Below are positions 3,751 to 64,000 of a stretch of DNA of 64,000 nucleotides, piece by piece. The DNA comes from Candidatus Bathyarchaeota archaeon. Its GTDB lineage: Archaea > Thermoproteota > Bathyarchaeia > 40CM-2-53-6. The notes under the pieces were generated by a model, which saw only the letters and a program-made list of their open reading frames with translations, was not told where the DNA came from and did no database searches. Position 1 is the first letter of the stretch. Every line of letters begins with the position of its first letter. The stretch spans positions 6,298-70,297 of the forward strand of contig VBAW01000025.1 of the NCBI GenBank assembly GCA_005888635.1. Reading direction: 5' to 3'. A program made the position numbers and the translations under genes.

Positions 3751-5172
3751 CTACCGGTACTTGTAATGTCTCTCGAAGAGATCCGCTTCTACAGCCTCCT
3801 TCTCAGGCTCCTCTTCAAACTCTGGAAGCTGTTCCACGCTCGGAGGAATCATTCCACCTCTCCCGGCCCATTTCTCGTCGATCAGAAACTGGATCACAGC
3901 TCGAACCGACCTAAGCGGTATGCGTTTGACGGCGGGGTGGAGAAATCCTAGGATAACCATTCTCTGAGCCTCGCTGTGAGTCAGTCCTCGCGACATAAGG
4001 TAGAAGATTTGTTCCTCGTCCACCTGGCTCACGGAGCCCGAGTGGGTCGCCTTCACCTCATTCGTGAAAATCTCAAGGCCAGGGATTGCGTCGGCCCTCG
4101 CCTTCTTGCTAAGGATCATCGCATGCTCCGCCAAATAGGAGTTTGAATTCTTGGCTCCCTCGCTGATCCTGATCATTCCCTTGAAAATCGCACGAGCACT
4201 ATCCCTCAATACTCCACGAGCTAGAACATGCCCTGTAGTGTTTGTCGACTGGTGCGTTAGATCCGTTACGACATCGAACCGCTGCGACTCCGAACCGAAC
4301 ACCACCTCGACATCCTCGGCCGTAGATCCGGGGCCATCGAGAACACTGTCCATCCGAGAACGCGTGGTTCCACCTCCAAGGTGTCCCACTGTCCAGTTTA
4401 TCCGGGAATCCTTCTGACCGATTGACCTCCGATTGACCGTCGAGTGAACGTCGCTCTCAAAGTCCTGGAGACTGGCAAAATTCACTTCGGCTCCTTCGGC
4501 GAGATAGATCTCCGTGACCTCGCTGTAGAGGGCCGGACCTTGACGCTCCTTACCCAGTCGTGAGTATGCTTCCTGCAGGAAGTTGACTTTGCTGTTCTCC
4601 TCAGCCACAATCATGTTGTGAGTGAAAGAAGCTTGTCCTCGGGTCGTGAGGAGCACGATGTTCCGGAAAGGAATCTTGACGCTCAGCCCCTTGGGAACGT
4701 AGAGAAAGGTTCCCGCTGTGAAGAATGCGTCATTGAGAGCTGCAAACTTGTCGTCGCCCGGCGGGATTGCTTTTGTGAACCGGTTTCGGGCGAGGTCTGG
4801 AAACTTGACCAAGGCCGATTCCAAGTCTGAGAAGACGATTCCCTCCTTCTCCAGAGCACCATGTACTTCGGTGCGGACCATCTGAGAATCCACTTGCAGT
4901 GCAAGTGTCGGCTCATCCTTCTCCCTGATTAGGTGAGATATTTCACTAGGAATAGTTCGACTATTCGACGGCAATCCAAGTTGGATGGAATCAAGATTGA
5001 GCCCCGAGAGGATGTCGACATATTTCGTGTATAACTGAGACTTTTCGATGGGGAGTTTGTTGAAGTAGTCGAGAGCCACTGATCGTTCTCTGCTAATTTC
5101 CTCAGGTTCAGCGAGGAGGCCGGAGACCTCTTTCACCATACTTTCGGTTGGATTGGCGAGAGAGTTGCCCAT
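3751..5172 (-). CDS. sufD: Fe-S cluster assembly protein SufD
   Basis: 473 aa, SufB/SufD-family beta-helix. More divergent than the adjacent SufB and directly downstream of it. Confidence 0.85.
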   Translation of the reverse strand: MGNSLANPTESMVKEVSGLLAEPEEISRERSVALDYFNKLPIEKSQLYTKYVDILSGLNLDSIQLGLPSNSRTIPSEISHLIREKDEPTLALQVDSQMVRTEVHGALEKEGIVFSDLESALVKFPDLARNRFTKAIPPGDDKFAALNDAFFTAGTFLYVPKGLSVKIPFRNIVLLTTRGQASFTHNMIVAEENSKVNFLQEAYSRLGKERQGPALYSEVTEIYLAEGAEVNFASLQDFESDVHSTVNRRSIGQKDSRINWTVGHLGGGTTRSRMDSVLDGPGSTAEDVEVVFGSESQRFDVVTDLTHQSTNTTGHVLARGVLRDSARAIFKGMIRISEGAKNSNSYLAEHAMILSKKARADAIPGLEIFTNEVKATHSGSVSQVDEEQIFYLMSRGLTHSEAQRMVILGFLHPAVKRIPLRSVRAVIQFLIDEKWAGRGGMIPPSVEQLPEFEEEPEKEAVEADLFERHYKYR

Positions 5173-57474: not shown

Positions 57475-58653
57475 CTATCTCTTGAATTTAACTGAAATCT
57501 TGGCCGCTTGATACTCAGCGTAATTTGCGAACTCTTCTTCAATTGACCTTCTTTCTCTAGCTATCAAGGGTCGTAGCGGGCTTACATTCGCTGTCATGCC
57601 TGCGCGATCTTTCTTCCTCTTCCAGGTTGCCGCGACAAATCCATCGAGAAGAATTGTTCGGTTGACTGCGGCGAAGCTCCCAAAGACGTTCTTGATCCTA
57701 TCGTGAGTGAGGAATCTGGATTTGTCCCTGTATCCCATCATCAGGCTGTCAAATTCAGGAAGAATAGTCACTCTGGGCGGTTCAACTGGCTCGCCTGAGT
57801 CTTCACCAAACGAAAAATATTCTCTGCTCGAATGGAGATTCTCCTTGGTCAGCTCCTTCTCCAAAGCATCTAGGGCTTTGTCTACCTGGTCCTTTCGAAG
57901 GAACGACCAGTACAGAATGTCTTCGCGAGTTACTGGCCCGTAACGTTCGATGTACTTGCGAACCAACTCAACCGTGCACTCTTCCGGGTCGAGAGGGGTG
58001 CGTGGCGCGGCAAGGTAGTCGGCTGATCCCATCCAGAGGCTCTCAGAACCTTTCCTTCCAGCATTGACGAGGAGACCAAGATAAGACATCTCCGACATAC
58101 CCGTCCACGATGGCCCGTGGGTCGGCGTGCTTGACCATCCTCTTTGCAGTTTCATTCTGCTTCGCAGACCATGTTGTGTTAGCCTTTCAATCATGAACTG
58201 CTTGACTTCGTTTGACGTTGCCGCTCGTCCTTTGATGTGATCCAGGAATGGCTGGTAGAGAAACCGGACTCTGAAATCTCGGTCGGGAATGCCACGTTTT
58301 TTTGCCGTCCTGTCGAACCAGGGTTGGAAGCGTCTGCCTGGGCCACCGAGCACGTATACCCAGTAATCCTTTGAAGGAATGGTGTGCATCGTGCTTCTGA
58401 CAGTCCAAGTTCTGACAAGACCTCCCCTGGGTCTGAGCTCGGATGTAAGGTCCGAGTCCCGGAACCCGTCTACCCGGGCCCAGAACGATGAGTAGCTTTC
58501 GAGAAGGTCCTGAGAATTCATGCCGCAACATGCTTCCGCGACCTTCACGGCAGCGCGTGGCCCTGAAGCTTTCCGGGAGAGATATTGTGAAGTCAAGAGC
58601 CTTCTGTTAAGAGCCCTCAAGACTGGCGAATCCAGCCAACTCGAGAGATTCAC
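57475..58653 (-). CDS. Winged-helix DNA-binding domain protein of the YcaQ/AlkZ-like family (putative DNA glycosylase-like)
   Basis: 392 aa. N-terminal LLTSQYLSRKASGPRAAVKVAEACCGMNSQD... and the MHTIP segment resemble the conserved N-terminal region of YcaQ/AlkZ-type proteins. The call rests on pattern memory only. Confidence 0.45.
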   Translation of the reverse strand: MNLSSWLDSPVLRALNRRLLTSQYLSRKASGPRAAVKVAEACCGMNSQDLLESYSSFWARVDGFRDSDLTSELRPRGGLVRTWTVRSTMHTIPSKDYWVYVLGGPGRRFQPWFDRTAKKRGIPDRDFRVRFLYQPFLDHIKGRAATSNEVKQFMIERLTQHGLRSRMKLQRGWSSTPTHGPSWTGMSEMSYLGLLVNAGRKGSESLWMGSADYLAAPRTPLDPEECTVELVRKYIERYGPVTREDILYWSFLRKDQVDKALDALEKELTKENLHSSREYFSFGEDSGEPVEPPRVTILPEFDSLMMGYRDKSRFLTHDRIKNVFGSFAAVNRTILLDGFVAATWKRKKDRAGMTANVSPLRPLIARERRSIEEEFANYAEYQAAKISVKFKR

Positions 58654-58730: not shown

Positions 58731-60338
58731 TTACAAGTCTTCTCTACGAGTAATCGCGTCTCCAGCCCTGTTCAGTAGCACGTTGATCGACATTCCGGTG
58801 AAGGCAATCGAGATCAACACCAGGGCGACAGCTAATATCGGAAGCGTGGCGGGTCCCATTATTGCAGCGAGCGCCTCCGAGACCAACACCAGCAGAATAA
58901 TCGGTGAGACCATGATCAAATTGATGATTGTTTGAAAGAGGAACCTCCGGATGTCAGCTAGCTCTTGTGCCTGAGACGACAAGATATCATCCGCGGAGCT
59001 CTGACCATATCTTGACGCAAACCACATTCCACCAGCCATTGTGATTCCCGCGATTTCCAATGCTCCTGGAAGTGCCAGCACTACGCCCAGCAACAGCGAC
59101 GGTGAGGACAGCTGGCCTAAGACCAAAGGCACGCCAACCGCGACAGTGACCGGTACTAGATAGAACAGCAACGGCGCTACCCGCGCGCGATAAACCTCTT
59201 TCACGTACCTGCGCATGCTGACTGGCGATGATTTCAGGATCCAGAGGCGCTCTTTCTCAATCCAGCGGGACGCTGTCCCGGACCCGAACGATCCGATGAT
59301 GAAGAGGATGAAGAGAAACGAGGTCGGCGAGGACTGGAAAGATCCGGAGAGTGCGTAGATGACTAGGAACCCTGAGAGGAACATGGCGTTGATGAAGAGC
59401 GCCCGGGCTTCTCGGGTCCTGCTGATCAGAATCTTCTCCTTCAGCCGCACTATCGACCAGATCGATTTCCCGCGCGGGTCCAGCCGTGAGGTTTGGTTCG
59501 GGTGGTCGAATTTTTCCCCGCCTGGCGTTGAGACTTCGAGAAGTTCGTAGAAGTGTCCGCGTGCCATCCGTACCCCGAGAACCAGGAATCCTCCAAGCCA
59601 AGCAAACAGCAACAGAAGATCAACGAGATAGTCGAGCCCTCCCGGGGTCCCGCTGACAAGACCAACACTGACAATCGCAGCGAGCCCGTTCGGCAGGATC
59701 CTCGTAACATCGGCGATCTCGACCGGGATTCCGGGAATTAGCAGAGTTATCGGAAGGAGACTAAGAACCAAGACAAGTACGATGAACAGGTTTCTCCAGA
59801 GTTTCTTTCGCTCACCGATCCCGCGCCCTAGCGAGAGCGTGATGTCCGCGGCAAGAAGCAATCCGATTACTAGGAAGACGAGAGTTACGAGCCCGGCCAG
59901 AATGGCGGCGGTCATTGGCGTGTGATAGTATGCGGAGAATCGCAGGTAGAGGACGATTATTGGGGGAAAACCGAACAGCACTGTCGTGAGTGAGTTGAGC
60001 AGGACCTTGGCTGCGAAGACTTCCCGTGGTGGCACTGGAGAGGTAAAGACGTAGTCGACATCGCTTGAACTAACAGGCAACCCGCCTCCGTTGAAGCCGC
60101 TCTGTATCAGCCCAACAAGGTAGAGTGCGAGGACGAGACTGCCTGCAACTTCCGAGAGTCCAGTTGTCAAGCCGACCCTGTTCGAGAACGAGAGGTACGT
60201 AGAGCTGCCGAATAGGATGAATATTACAGAGAAAGTTTCTCCGATAATTAGGCCTAGAATTGTGGCTTTGGTAAATCGTCCTTTTACCCAGTATCGGATT
60301 AGGATTCCAACGGTTCCGAGTGGACTTGCAACGCTCAT
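58731..60338 (-). CDS. ABC transporter permease (ABC-2-like, about 12 TM helices)
   Basis: 535 aa, highly hydrophobic. 4-nt overlap with the upstream ATPase gene. Confidence 0.6.
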   Translation of the reverse strand: MSVASPLGTVGILIRYWVKGRFTKATILGLIIGETFSVIFILFGSSTYLSFSNRVGLTTGLSEVAGSLVLALYLVGLIQSGFNGGGLPVSSSDVDYVFTSPVPPREVFAAKVLLNSLTTVLFGFPPIIVLYLRFSAYYHTPMTAAILAGLVTLVFLVIGLLLAADITLSLGRGIGERKKLWRNLFIVLVLVLSLLPITLLIPGIPVEIADVTRILPNGLAAIVSVGLVSGTPGGLDYLVDLLLLFAWLGGFLVLGVRMARGHFYELLEVSTPGGEKFDHPNQTSRLDPRGKSIWSIVRLKEKILISRTREARALFINAMFLSGFLVIYALSGSFQSSPTSFLFILFIIGSFGSGTASRWIEKERLWILKSSPVSMRRYVKEVYRARVAPLLFYLVPVTVAVGVPLVLGQLSSPSLLLGVVLALPGALEIAGITMAGGMWFASRYGQSSADDILSSQAQELADIRRFLFQTIINLIMVSPIILLVLVSEALAAIMGPATLPILAVALVLISIAFTGMSINVLLNRAGDAITRREDL

Positions 60339-61129
60339 CTTCGAGCCGGGTCCTCGCCCTTCTCTTCAGTCAACCGCAGGAACACGTCTTCTAGTCTCGC
60401 ATCGCTTGTAGTATTCGCCATATGCCGAAGACTCTCAATATCGCCCACCGCCACGATCTTCCCATGGTCAATGATCGCAATCCTTCCTGCGTGGGTCTGA
60501 GCCACATCGAGATCATGAGTTGACAGTATCGTAGTGACGCCTCTCGCCGTCTGTCCACCGATCCAGTCCTTGACCGAGACGCGAGTCTTCGGATCTAATG
60601 CTGTCAACGGCTCATCCAACACTAGAAGCTGGGGATTGTGCAGACTCGTAGCAATTAGCGCCACTTTCTGCTTCATCCCTTTTGATAGGGTTCCGACCAG
60701 ACTATTCCGTTTCTCCTCCAAGCCGAAGCTCTTGAGCAACTCGGAAATCTCCCGGTCGAGAAGATCATCGGGGACTCCTCGAATCTTCCCTACAAACTGC
60801 AGAAACTCTAGCGTAGTGAGCCCTGTGTAGAGACTCGGGTTCTCCGGCAAGTATCCAATCATCTTCTTCGCCTTCTCAGGATCCGCGACAATGTCTATGG
60901 CTCCGATTCTGATCGTCCCGGTTGTCGGTCTAAGGATTCCTACCAGAGTCTTCAGAAGAGTGCTCTTGCCCGCTCCATTGGGTCCAAGCAGGCCGAAGAC
61001 TTCGCCTGAAGCTATCTTGAGTGAGACGTCGTCGAGAGCCACGAGGGTTCCATAATGTTTCGTAAGGTTCTCGATGGATATCTCGACCATGTTCGTCGAC
61101 CCTTTCTGGAAGACCGATGAGCAAGACAT
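60335..61129 (-). CDS. ABC transporter ATP-binding protein
   Basis: 264 aa. Walker A GPNGAGKST, signature LSKGMKQKV, Walker B LLVLDEPLTALD, H-loop STHDLD. Confidence 0.9.
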   Translation of the reverse strand: MSCSSVFQKGSTNMVEISIENLTKHYGTLVALDDVSLKIASGEVFGLLGPNGAGKSTLLKTLVGILRPTTGTIRIGAIDIVADPEKAKKMIGYLPENPSLYTGLTTLEFLQFVGKIRGVPDDLLDREISELLKSFGLEEKRNSLVGTLSKGMKQKVALIATSLHNPQLLVLDEPLTALDPKTRVSVKDWIGGQTARGVTTILSTHDLDVAQTHAGRIAIIDHGKIVAVGDIESLRHMANTTSDARLEDVFLRLTEEKGEDPARR

Positions 61130-61272: not shown

Positions 61273-61647
61273 CTATTGGTGAATCAGTCCGTGACCAGTG
61301 CTCTGGCCGCTGAAGCTCTCGTGGCCCCGGTGAAGCGCGTCGTAGTGGACGCCGCAGAAGCTCTTGCCGCAGCTGTTGCAGAACTCTGTCGCCCGCTCAG
61401 TGCAACGGTTGCTCGTCGCCATTGTCTCGTCGAACGAGCCGAACCCACCAGTTTCCATCTCTTCGCAAGTCTTGGTCTTCAGGCTCTCATGAGCACCATG
61501 CTCATGGGTTGGACTCCCGAAAGTGGTCGGCTGATGCGCTGGGGTTGGATGAGTGCTCGTAGTAGTGTGCGGATTCGGATGGGGCGTACCAGTGTGATGC
61601 TCTGGATTGGTATGCGCGTTGTTCTTGGGCTTCGTCTTGGATTTCAT
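61273..61647 (-). CDS. Small Cys5His3-motif protein with a His/Thr/Pro-rich N-terminal tail (paralog A)
   Basis: 124 aa. The C-terminal block KTCEEMETGGFGSFDE...RCTERATEFCNSCGKSFCGVHYDALHRGHES is shared with ORF 62921..63292. Confidence 0.5.
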   Translation of the reverse strand: MKSKTKPKNNAHTNPEHHTGTPHPNPHTTTSTHPTPAHQPTTFGSPTHEHGAHESLKTKTCEEMETGGFGSFDETMATSNRCTERATEFCNSCGKSFCGVHYDALHRGHESFSGQSTGHGLIHQ

Positions 61648-61867
61648 GTCGACTCATCAACGAAAAATTCACGGCCGGTCATAGTCTATTTCTAACCCAC
61701 ACTCTTCGAGCCCAGTAACAACCGACCCCCTAGATGCTGATAGTGAGCAGTCTCCCGATCCTCACAAGTCTTAAATCGAAATGTTTCGCGAGCCGAGTTT
61801 CAGGCGCGTGAGTGGGGCCTCCCACCCGTTGCGCCTCGCAAGAAAAACCCCGGAGTAGGGAGGCAAA

Positions 61868-62572
61868 ATGATCAGACCAGAAAATAGAAGACCATGGGTT
61901 CCTAAAACCGCTGAACTCAGTCTGACCGCCGGCCTCGCGGCCATCTATACTATCACAACCTATCTCCCGCTGAGCAAGTTCATTGGCGGACCTGGATTTA
62001 TCACCCTCGAAATCGTCATGCTCCCAATAATCGCCGCACTGTTGAGACCACCCCTAGCCTCTGCAGCGGTCTTCGTGGGCAGTCTCGTAGGGGCGCTGGG
62101 ACAGTCCAGTTTCACGTTTGTTTTTGGACCTTTAGGGCTTCTCATCCCGTTGATTGCAGTTGCGACCGGAAGCATTGCTTTCCACTACCGCCTTGGACCC
62201 GTGGTCGCTTGCCTCTATGTCATAGCTGGCGCAGTTTACTACGTCGTGCTATCCGGGGGCGGAACGCTTTTCTGGCTTGTTCCGTACTTTCTGGTAATAG
62301 TCTCCCTTCCCGTGACTTTCAGGATTCGGGACAATCCTCGCATAGGATTACTCTCTTTCTACACTGCCATGGCCGAGCAGGTCACTCTGAACATCTTGAG
62401 CATCAGTATTCTGGGCTTGACGGGGCCATTCTGGCTCGGCGTTACACCGTTGATGTATGGAGAGAGAACGCTTGCGACGATAGGTGGAGCGGCAGGAATC
62501 GTTGCCCTTAAATCGGGACTTGGAGGCAGACTCGACCTAATAGAGCGGTCGCCGAGGGAGGTGAGACAGTAG
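61868..62572 (+). CDS. Polytopic membrane protein (about 6 TM; ECF S-component-like topology, tentative)
   Basis: 234 aa. Six hydrophobic helices with short loops. Immediately followed (3-nt gap) by a zinc-ribbon ORF. Confidence 0.45.
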   Translation: MIRPENRRPWVPKTAELSLTAGLAAIYTITTYLPLSKFIGGPGFITLEIVMLPIIAALLRPPLASAAVFVGSLVGALGQSSFTFVFGPLGLLIPLIAVATGSIAFHYRLGPVVACLYVIAGAVYYVVLSGGGTLFWLVPYFLVIVSLPVTFRIRDNPRIGLLSFYTAMAEQVTLNILSISILGLTGPFWLGVTPLMYGERTLATIGGAAGIVALKSGLGGRLDLIERSPREVRQ

Positions 62573-62574
62573 AA

Positions 62575-62775
62575 ATGTGTGTTACACCAGTCGTAAAATG
62601 CTGGCATTGTGGAGAATGGTTCGTCAAGAAATCCAACAGAGAGAGCTTCGAGGCATGTCCGAGCTGCGGAAAGGGCTTCGAACAACTCAGCCCTGAGGCA
62701 CAACGGGCCGTGAAGGCTACGCTAGCGCCATTCTTCGAAGTACCTAGGCTGAAGGCAGAAAATATCGCAGCCTAG
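62575..62775 (+). CDS. Small zinc-ribbon protein
   Basis: 66 aa. CWHCG...CPSCG (CxxC-x16-CxxC). Confidence 0.45.
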   Translation: MCVTPVVKCWHCGEWFVKKSNRESFEACPSCGKGFEQLSPEAQRAVKATLAPFFEVPRLKAENIAA

Positions 62776-62920
62776 GTTGCCTCCATTTTTTGAACTAGCA
62801 AAAACTCAACCATTTTCCACTTGTTTTACGAGGCACGTCGGCAGGACTGTTACCAGATTTTCAACGCATGGGTTAGGTGTGGAATTTGACCAACCATGAG
62901 CCTCTTAACACTCGGTTCTA

Positions 62921-63292
62921 ATGAAGTCGAAGAAGAAAGCTAAGACCCGTTCAAAATCTAAACCTCGTGCCAAATCGAAGGCGCACACAAAGAGCAAGAC
63001 TCATGCTCGCACCGGGACAAAGGAGGCTCATCCAGCCATCGTCGAATCGATTCCTAGCCCGAATGTCACTCTCAATCCTGCACTGAAGACGTGTCAGGAG
63101 GTAGAAGTCGGCGACATCGGCGGATTCGGCAGTCCAGATGAACTGGAGGAGCATGAGAAACGTTGCGCCGAGCCAGCCACAGAGTTCTGCAGCAACTGCG
63201 GCAAGAACCTGTGCCGCAACCATTACGATCTGATCCATAGAGACCACGATAGTAGCGGACACTCCACCAGCTCCAACATGACGCAGCAGTAG
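62921..63292 (+). CDS. Small Cys5His3-motif protein with a Lys/Ser-rich N-terminal tail (paralog B)
   Basis: 123 aa. The C-terminal block KTCQEVEVGDIGGFGSPDE...RCAEPATEFCSNCGKNLCRNHYDLIHRDHDS is colinear with paralog A. Confidence 0.5.
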   Translation: MKSKKKAKTRSKSKPRAKSKAHTKSKTHARTGTKEAHPAIVESIPSPNVTLNPALKTCQEVEVGDIGGFGSPDELEEHEKRCAEPATEFCSNCGKNLCRNHYDLIHRDHDSSGHSTSSNMTQQ

Positions 63293-63592: not shown

Positions 63593-63985
63593 TCAGTTGT
63601 TTCTCGTCTTCGCCGCTGTCTGGACCGCGAGCTGCTTTAGGAATCTCGTTCCAACGGGGTCCGTCGCAGCCCGAGTCTTGCTTGTAAACGGAGAGTCCGG
63701 CACCCGGGCATACATCATCATGTACGGCGCCATCGCCAAGACAATCTTGCTCTCCGCCTTCCGAATATGCTCCTCAAGCGTGCTGCGCGGCGTTCCCAGC
63801 TTGCCAGCCAATTCATCCGCGGTTGTCCGTTTCGGAATCTCGTAGTATCCTCCCTCGATCGCAGCCAAAAGCGCCTTCATCTGCTTCTCAGTCAAATTCC
63901 CGAACAGACTGCTTAGTGACAGTAGGAAAGCGTCGTCGGTCATGCCTTCAGCAGATCCCTTGTGCAAGACCTCCGTCTTCCCCAC
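63593..63985 (-). CDS. HTH_10 (bat-type helix-turn-helix) domain transcriptional regulator; may extend beyond the window end
   Basis: C-terminal LTEKQMKALLAAIEGGYYEIPKRTTADELAGKLGTPRSTLEEHIRKAESKIV is the archaeal bacterio-opsin-activator-type HTH. Confidence 0.55.
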   Translation of the reverse strand: MGKTEVLHKGSAEGMTDDAFLLSLSSLFGNLTEKQMKALLAAIEGGYYEIPKRTTADELAGKLGTPRSTLEEHIRKAESKIVLAMAPYMMMYARVPDSPFTSKTRAATDPVGTRFLKQLAVQTAAKTRNN

Positions 63986-64000
63986 TTTGTCCAGGCCCTT

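Follow-up and report, generated by a model that had tools for sequence, protein, structure and literature searches.

An inverted pair of small B-box-like proteins with a shared upstream element in soil Bathyarchaeia

B-boxes have been studied almost entirely in eukaryotes, in the TRIM ligases and the plant BBX/CONSTANS factors, and the type-1 and ANCHR-like forms of the module (Pfam PF22586, PF00643) take in TRIM proteins, plant BBX/CONSTANS proteins and ZFYVE19. The canonical domain holds two zinc ions with eight Cys/His residues, following the ligand rule C-x2-C/H-x7-12-C-x2-C-x4-5-C-x2-C/H-x3-6-H-x2-8-C/H. In plants, the B-box-only microProteins miP1a/b (i.e., BBX30/31), which are small and contain one B-box, modulate CONSTANS by B-box-mediated association. 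Here, we describe a pair of paralogous genes, A and B, which encode small B-box-like proteins in a 64,000-nt stretch of contig VBAW01000025.1 from a Candidatus Bathyarchaeota archaeon (the window, numbered from its first letter). The explanation that we favor, tentatively and with a confidence slightly short of even, is that the pair arose by inverted duplication, promoter included, within a small family of stand-alone B-box-type proteins of soil Bathyarchaeia, and that A and B serve as co-regulated nucleic-acid-associated adaptors. A survey in 2008 reported no B-boxes in prokaryotes (PMC2533329). According to the passage of PMC4506424 that cites Burroughs, Iyer and Aravind (2011), prokaryotic B-boxes are tied to membrane-protein folding, stability and proteolysis. 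Our literature search found no paper on archaeal B-boxes. Small archaeal zinc-finger proteins have been described, e.g., Brz of Halobacterium salinarum (PMC2253796) and the zinc-finger micro-proteins of Haloferax (PMC6562870), some of which regulate the transcription of adjacent genes.

Paralog A (124 aa) is encoded on the minus strand at 61273..61647 and paralog B (123 aa) on the plus strand at 62921..63292, and both carry the NCBI label "hypothetical protein" (TMI63319.1 and TMI63322.1, respectively). A first-pass annotation of the window had reported these two open reading frames (ORFs) as paralogs, and their coordinates, their lengths and their relationship all hold. BLASTP aligned A with B at 39% identity across the full length (E 2e-22), identity rises to ~53% over the C-terminal 65 residues, and the near-identical 5′ nucleotides of the two genes were also seen again. 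At the DNA level, the pair forms an inverted repeat with two matching stretches, one of 95 nt (74%) within the module and one of 31 nt (71%) upstream. The ratio of nonsynonymous to synonymous substitution rates (dN/dS), obtained from codon-level comparison with orthologues, is 0.07–0.29 for the modules and 0.19–0.38 for the tails (0.07–0.36 for A and 0.08–0.38 for B as genes), and this overall range of 0.07–0.38 indicates that A and B are real, constrained genes whose low-complexity tails are under selection too. Paralog B consists of a polybasic K/R/S/T tail (15 Lys/Arg in 54 aa; charge +12.8), an acidic KTCQEVEVGDIGGFGSPDELEEH loop and a B-box-like module, and paralog A of a disordered His/Thr/Pro-rich tail (57 aa with 12 Thr, 9 Pro and 10 His, the last in HxH and HxxxH spacings; charge +2.4), an acidic KTCEEMETGGFGSFDE loop and the corresponding module. 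These counts agree with the divergent tails that the first-pass annotation had described. The module charge is −6.8 in B and −4.2 in A, and no hydrophobic segment was found in either protein.

The modules of A and B share the invariant pattern C-x21/24-C-x7-C-x2-C-x4-C-x2-H-x4-H-x2-H, in which the five Cys and three His and the C-x2-C-x4-C-x2-H-x4-H-x2-H spacing had already been recognized. The full pattern, C-x(15-30)-C-x7-C-x2-C-x4-C-x2-H-x4-H-x2-H, is kept in 147 of 162 retrieved relatives, and the other 15 are visibly frameshifted or truncated read-derived sequences. An alignment of 85 sequences shows no variation at the five Cys and three His or at the loop residues E60, G67, G68, F69 and E74. 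The best Pfam match is PF22586 (ANCHR-like_BBOX), with 25.7 bits and E 1.3e-5 for B and 19.3 bits and E 0.0012 for A; it is the top match for 83 of the 85 aligned relatives at E<=0.01 (best 7.2e-7), and many of the relatives in the databases already come with a precomputed PF22586 match. PF00643 (zf-B_box) is matched by 14 of the 85, and B scores 14.8 bits against its gathering cut-off of 24.1. Thus, of the earlier description of a B-box/treble-clef-like module that could be assigned to no family, the likeness stands, with eight ligands that are enough for two zinc sites, but a B-box family can now be attached to it.

A HMMER profile of the family was searched against 1.84 billion representative proteins, which returned 22 clusters at E<=0.001, 21 of them the family itself. 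The sole non-family cluster, P0179 (E 4.6e-4), contains three canonical B-boxes (PF00643 68.8 bits; PF22586 58.6 bits), and its gene lies on a eukaryotic contig, adjoining kinesin genes. Alignment of the trimmed module with the three P0179 repeats by hhalign gave a probability of 93.4% (E 2.4e-7) and paired RC-AEPATEFC-SNC-GKNLC-RNH-YDLIH with QC-EEKDAALHC-NDC-SKNFC-SGC-FDLLH. In this placement, C82 of B corresponds to the second Cys of the canonical C-x2-C, C90 and C93 to ligands 3 and 4, C98 and H101 to ligands 5 and 6, and H106 to ligand 7, and the invariant H109 is a candidate for ligand 8. The spacing C82-x7-C90-x2-C93-x4-C98-x2-H101-x4-H106-x2-H109 fits ligands 2–8 of the B-box rule, and the ligand-1 position is occupied by Glu. 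The only other invariant Cys/His is C58, in a K-T/S-C motif 24 (B) or 21 (A) residues upstream. Since a Glu stands at the ligand-1 position and C58 is the sole remaining invariant Cys/His, the first ligand is read as having moved upstream, i.e., C58 probably replaces the canonical first ligand across an inserted conserved acidic loop (C-QEVEVGDIGGFGSPDELEEHEKR-C). A low-confidence AlphaFold model, which shows a beta-bridge between the KTC and RCAEP segments followed by a beta-hairpin and then a helix, is compatible with a B-box whose first ligand is displaced. On sequence grounds, the module is best read as a divergent B-box, i.e., a treble clef of the binuclear, RING-like kind, and its Cys/His residues would most simply be structural zinc ligands rather than a metal-trafficking site.

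Several observations weigh against this assignment and thus against the explanation that we favor. Both proteins fall below the PF22586 gathering cut-off of 27 bits (B 25.7, A 19.3). Of the very many canonical B-box proteins in the searched library, one was significant, and its three repeats add up; moreover, the hhalign partner P0179 was picked after the profile match, which makes that test partly circular. Sequence searches of the PDB gave no significant match, the best being the NSD2 C5HCH domain (E 0.29). The module might instead be an independent Cys/His zinc knuckle or ribbon, not homologous to B-boxes, whose spacing has converged. The sub-threshold Pfam scores, the non-significant PDB matches, the missing canonical first ligand and the weaker Pfam matches to other zinc fingers (NSD C5HCH, zf-C2HC_2 and the TRAFD1 zinc finger, beside zf-B_box) fit such an origin, as does the fact that the fold is read from sequence and a low-confidence model. 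On the other side, PF22586 is the top match for 83 of the 85 members, a canonical B-box protein was the one non-family match when 1.84 billion proteins were searched without bias, and the hhalign likeness reaches positions that are not ligands (A/T-x-F-C, L-C and L-H-R/K). An independent origin is thus considered unlikely, and the B-box assignment is retained below.

Like the canonical B-box, A and B have the ligand 2–7 spacing C-x7-C-x2-C-x4-C-x2-H-x4-H with conserved non-ligand positions, a beta-hairpin plus helix core (predicted in A and B) and eight Cys/His available for two zinc ions. Unlike it, they lack the first ligand and have instead an invariant Cys 21–24 residues upstream, across an acidic GGFG loop, and their last His follows ligand 7 by 2 residues rather than later. 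They are also stand-alone proteins of ~120 aa with a polybasic tail and with no RING, coiled coil or CCT domain, and they are archaeal, restricted to soil Bathyarchaeia. The prokaryotic B-boxes of Burroughs et al. (2011), as far as they are described in PMC4506424, are B-box-type binuclear treble clefs in a prokaryote, as A and B are predicted to be, but they occur in membrane-protein contexts, whereas A and B have no such conserved linkage. CPxCG-type proteins, compared by description, are similarly small, stand-alone, archaeal zinc fingers; in contrast, A and B contain one CxxCG knuckle (CNSCG, CSNCG) inside a C5H3 module, predicted to be binuclear, and are twice the size. The NSD C5HCH domain (PF17982) matches weakly over C-x7-C-x2-C-x4-C-x2-H, with E 0.29 against the PDB, and always ranks below the B-box match.

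For B, the database searches retrieved 227 relatives, and for A, 42. Among the 185,579 genomes of the GTDB species set, only nine species carry the family, all of which are soil Bathyarchaeia metagenome-assembled genomes (MAGs) or syntenic contigs binned under bacterial names, and the family as a whole comprises ~20 clusters, all from soil Bathyarchaeia. All members are stand-alone proteins of ~90–150 aa in which a tail rich in K/R/S/T is joined through a Pro/Ser/Thr linker to the acidic loop and a B-box core of ~30 residues. The Lys-rich B type was found in 9/9 species and in every divergent cluster. The His/Thr/Pro-rich A type was found in the closest clade only, always in the same inverted position; it lacks three loop residues (GDI), and the His-rich tract is restricted to this subfamily, the tails of all other members being K/R/S/T-rich. 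This distribution, with the B type everywhere and the A type in the closest clade only, indicates that B is the ancestral type and that A is a lineage-specific duplicate with an altered tail. No relatives of the family were found in IMG/VR, and the composition of the window is flat, which gives no sign of a viral or mobile origin.

Some features of the database records should be noted. Syntenic or 80–100% identical records are filed under the bacterial names Candidatus Dormiibacterota, "bacterium Centralia_MAG_577", Candidatus Angelobacter and Limnocylindrales (loci L011, DASPWZ010000006.1, and L014, JAJPJY010000042.1; proteins P0073, P0302 and P0332), and these names probably reflect mis-binning in soil MAGs. 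The 90%-identity cluster that contains A has as its representative an unrelated protein of 312 aa, Thr/Ser/Pro-rich and of surface type, and further members measure 380–433 aa. The 312–433 aa members (P0316, P0318 and P0324) were considered as fusion proteins and rejected, being unrelated Thr/Ser/Pro-rich surface proteins; this low-complexity clustering artefact hides A from representative-based searches. Long antisense "shadow" ORFs also run across both B-box genes (61276-61695, plus; 62951-63262, minus), and in several Joint Genome Institute (JGI) contigs an antisense ORF of 148–167 aa on the plus strand was called in place of A (near 4274-4777, plus, in L001, L003 and L004). This choice by the gene caller is partly why A has far fewer database entries than B.

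The duplication takes in non-coding DNA as well. Alignment of A and B together with 120 nt of upstream sequence first revealed a shared motif, with the consensus TGTTAC-N18-GTTAG-N~10-T.T.AC, which spans roughly positions −73 to −30 relative to the start codon. The copy upstream of A lies at 61677..61720 on the minus strand (TGTTACT-N17-GGTTAG-N5-AGACTATGACC) and that upstream of B at 62848..62891 on the plus strand (TGTTACC-N17-GGTTAG-N5-GGAATTTGACC), and each begins 73 nt before the ATG. With its inner positions, the B copy reads TGTTACC..GATTT...GGTTAG..GTGGAATTTGACC; the third box is GACTAT[GC]AC in A and in the members that diverge most. In the 64-kb window, TGTTAC-N14-22-GTTAR occurs twice, both times upstream of the paralogs, compared with 0.18 expected occurrences. 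Among the first 19 loci, the element was found once per family gene and nowhere else, including zero occurrences in L017–L019, which have no family gene, and it lies upstream of every family gene in L001–L016, L020–L099 and L101–L104. All loci plus the window yielded 159 instances with 96 distinct sequences. TGTTAC starts at exactly −73 in 37 of the 40 distinct sequences for A and in 45 of the 56 for B, with nearly all others within a few nt, and the most divergent members keep the element at −72 to −74. It is also kept in species in which synonymous sites are saturated (synonymous divergence dS >1.3).

The nature of the element was considered at both the DNA and the RNA level. RNAalifold on 13 leaders predicted 0 pairs, and an Rfam scan of the leader gave nothing relevant. 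A short candidate upstream ORF in the window opens at TTGACC/ATGACC and ends in a stop that shares nucleotides with the main ATG (TAATG in B, ATGA in A). It was rejected: it is fused in frame in L012 and L014, but it has an early stop in L005 and no start codon in L013 and L016. In view of the absence of conserved pairing, of an Rfam match and of a conserved upstream ORF, the element is taken to be a sequence-specific site. It could be promoter or upstream activating sequence (UAS) DNA, since the third box sits where the TATA-like box of a short leader would. Another possibility is a site within a ~73-nt mRNA leader that is unstructured and bound by protein. The same element before A and B implies that the paralogs are co-regulated, and because the B-box gene is the sole constant companion of the element, autoregulation through it, at the DNA or mRNA-leader level, would be the most economical model. 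The alternative to autoregulation is a dedicated regulator encoded elsewhere, for which the HTH_10 protein that is often encoded adjacently is a candidate trans-acting factor.

The leader also bears on a different explanation, namely that A and B are small RNA- or ribosome-associated zinc proteins and that the leader is an autoregulatory translational operator. A basic extension combined with a zinc knuckle is seen in many archaeal ribosomal proteins, the family joins a basic disordered tail to a zinc module, and the fixed distance of the element from the start codon would suit an operator. The tail together with a "KT.EE.E....GF.SFD" segment is, in addition, weakly like human snRNP 27K, with a basic Ser/Lys/Arg-rich tail followed by the motif, which is KTCQEVEVGDIGGFGSPDEL in B and KTCEEMETGGFGSFDET in A. 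However, that match (PDB 6qw6_X against residues 3–78 of B and 55–75 of A) is not significant, at E 0.16 with a biased low-complexity contribution; the matches listed for A and B at E<=1 include none to the SNRNP27 family, and the likeness is probably due to chance. The leader shows neither a consensus RNA structure nor an Rfam match, and a ribosomal component would not usually be confined to ~20 clusters of a single soil lineage. A ribosomal or RNA-associated role of this type is thus regarded as rather improbable.

The region between the paralogs contains two genes on the plus strand, one for a polytopic membrane protein of 234 aa (61868..62572) and one for a 66-aa zinc-ribbon protein (62575..62775; TMI63321.1, "hypothetical protein"). 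As described in the first-pass annotation, the first gene encodes a membrane protein (5–7 hydrophobic segments), and the gene for the CxxC...CxxC protein starts 2 nt past its stop. The membrane protein gave no match in Pfam (E<=1) or NCBIfam, and none of its 182 relatives is annotated. The possibility that it is a distant QueT or energy-coupling factor (ECF) S-component was rejected, as it matched the QueT described below at BLASTP E 2.5 and an hhalign probability of 6% and showed no PDB or PF06177 match. The 66-aa protein has CWHCG and CPSCG knuckles and a sub-threshold Zn_ribbon_3 match, and its CxxCG...CPxCG signature, read from sequence, is that of the CPxCG-type archaeal proteins; its JGI label is "predicted nucleic acid-binding Zn-ribbon protein". 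An 18-nt inverted match of 89% between A (61357-61374) and the zinc-ribbon gene (62662-62679) lies where both encode a zinc knuckle SCGK[SG]F, and this match between unrelated proteins is probably convergence or chance.

Outside the pair, an ABC exporter pair lies at 58731..61129 on the minus strand, i.e., downstream of A and on the same strand, and consists of a PF16962-type permease (535 aa) and an ABC_tran ATPase (264 aa); it had been labeled an ABC-2 transporter, and the matches are instead to ABC_tran and to PF16962 "ABC_export". Beyond it, an AlkZ-like DNA glycosylase (57475-58653, minus; PF06224, 162 bits) is encoded upstream of the exporter pair, and its synteny extends to close relatives only. 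On the other side, convergent with B, the C-terminal part of an HTH_10 regulator is encoded at 63593..64000 on the minus strand (PF04967 at 67 bits), in agreement with the earlier assignment; the gene runs off the end of the window, and a full-length orthologue has 269 aa and an HVO_A0563_N domain (L002 6670-7479). Both the exporter pair and the regulator are given as context only.

Comparison with related loci clarifies which of these genes belong together. Across ~80 metagenomic contigs that are closely related, the genes keep a stable order, namely ABC permease, ABC ATPase, A (minus), slot, B (plus), HTH_10 (minus), and the content of the slot varies. Most of these contigs carry the membrane protein and zinc ribbon, and in ~20 loci of a sister lineage the slot holds a 202-aa QueT (queuosine-precursor transporter family, PF06177, 82 bits) without a zinc ribbon, the flanking genes being unchanged (L005–L007 5271-5879). 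Conversely, the membrane and zinc-ribbon pair occurs alone in other Bathyarchaeota (L017 4001-4893; L018 and L019 4001-4905), with the zinc ribbon always directly 3′ of the membrane gene, glyoxalase and DNA polymerase genes nearby, and no B-box gene within 4 kb. At these three loci, the zinc ribbon is more conserved (76–83%) than the membrane protein (54–65%). The two genes are thus an independent two-gene cassette in a variable slot, outside the B-box system. In the five GTDB species of greater divergence, B occurs without the ABC, A, membrane and zinc-ribbon genes, and its neighbors are aldo/keto reductases, DUF6295, dienelactone hydrolase or ORFs with a hydrophobic start, with HTH_10 in two species. 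Still more divergent metagenomic members lie next to PurH, HAD hydrolase, GNAT acetyltransferase, RibD_C or TrkA. HTH_10 adjoins B in close relatives with enough flanking sequence and in L012 and L013, in which it is 84–85% identical while B is just 58–63% identical, and it is not adjacent in L014–L016 or L101–L104.

These comparisons bear directly on the proposal in the first-pass annotation that a single module for metal handling or metal sensing is made up of A, B, the membrane protein and the zinc ribbon, perhaps joined by the ABC exporter and HTH_10. The 10 His in the 57-residue tail of A, with their HxH and HxxxH spacings, the constraint on that tail (dN/dS 0.26–0.36) and the adjacency of the genes in ~50 closely related contigs would suit such a module. 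However, an unrelated QueT replaces the membrane and zinc-ribbon pair at ~20 loci, the pair is also found alone elsewhere, and divergent species have only B with unrelated neighbors, so the four-gene module is not supported; the gene set is not conserved as a neighborhood in related genomes, the outcome that the first-pass annotation had itself named as refuting its proposal. The ancestral tail, moreover, is Lys-rich, the His-rich tail being confined to A, the neighbors match no metal transporter, metallochaperone or metalloregulator family, and the Cys/His pattern fits a structural B-box. A metal module is therefore considered very improbable.

The same neighborhoods are relevant to a role as adaptors for membrane-protein folding, stability or proteolysis, in which the B-box proteins would act on the adjacent membrane protein. 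This role has been proposed for prokaryotic B-boxes in the passage of PMC4506424 that cites Burroughs et al. (2011), and B does adjoin the 234-aa protein, QueT or ORFs with a hydrophobic start (L012, L014 and L016). However, the adjacent membrane proteins are not homologous to each other, the neighbors in L015 and L102–L104 are soluble enzymes, and a membrane-protein gene nearby is common by chance. No protease or chaperone gene is linked, and A and B have no membrane anchor. Such a role is regarded as quite unlikely for this family.

Our preferred explanation remains a family of co-regulated, nucleic-acid-associated B-box adaptors. A and B would be soluble cytoplasmic proteins, and the polybasic tail of B would bind a polyanion, most likely DNA or RNA. 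C58 would close the acidic GGFG loop onto the finger and thereby complete two structural zinc sites, and the B-box together with the acidic loop would mediate self-association or association with a partner. A would keep this interaction module, with the basic tail swapped for a His/Thr/Pro-rich one, and would probably modulate B as its partner or compete with it, with a possible sensitivity to pH or metal. Modulation of B by A would be analogous, in mechanism only, to the action of the plant B-box-only microProteins. Finally, A and B would feed back on their own expression through the −73 to −30 element. Contact of the basic tail with nucleic acid, association through the B-box and loop, modulation of B by A and feedback through the element are, taken jointly, a possible mechanism to which we give clearly less than even confidence. 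Further points count on the other side: the grounds for nucleic-acid binding are the tail composition and the private cis element; no partner gene is conserved next to the family genes, so that the neighbors are silent on function; and the element survey covered the flanks of family genes and one 64-kb window, with which a wider regulon of an unrelated regulator is compatible.

Automated pipelines already tag some members with PF22586, so that no novelty attaches to the domain call. The novelty lies in the combination of a stand-alone build, a first ligand probably displaced across a GGFG loop, confinement to soil Bathyarchaeia, a duplicated pair whose tails diverge and a private conserved cis element. 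For annotation, the "metal module" consists of two unrelated units that are neighbors in one lineage, and it should not be propagated as a system. A compact stand-alone archaeal B-box with a probably displaced first ligand provides a minimal system for asking what a B-box does alone, and the family is one more data point for how binuclear RING-like fingers arose. Since every family gene is preceded by the conserved 45-bp element at a constant distance, the question of whether the protein binds its own promoter or leader is directly testable. A more speculative extension, which we think unlikely, is that the "split" B-box is a sequence-specific autoregulator at its own element and that the basic and His-rich copies form a pH- or metal-responsive heteromeric switch in one subclade. 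If true, this would be the first functionally coherent archaeal B-box family, with the B-box as the core of a prokaryotic transcription or translation regulator, and the family would be informative on two possible histories, archaeal roots of the eukaryotic B-boxes or a transfer into Bathyarchaeia from eukaryotes of the soil.

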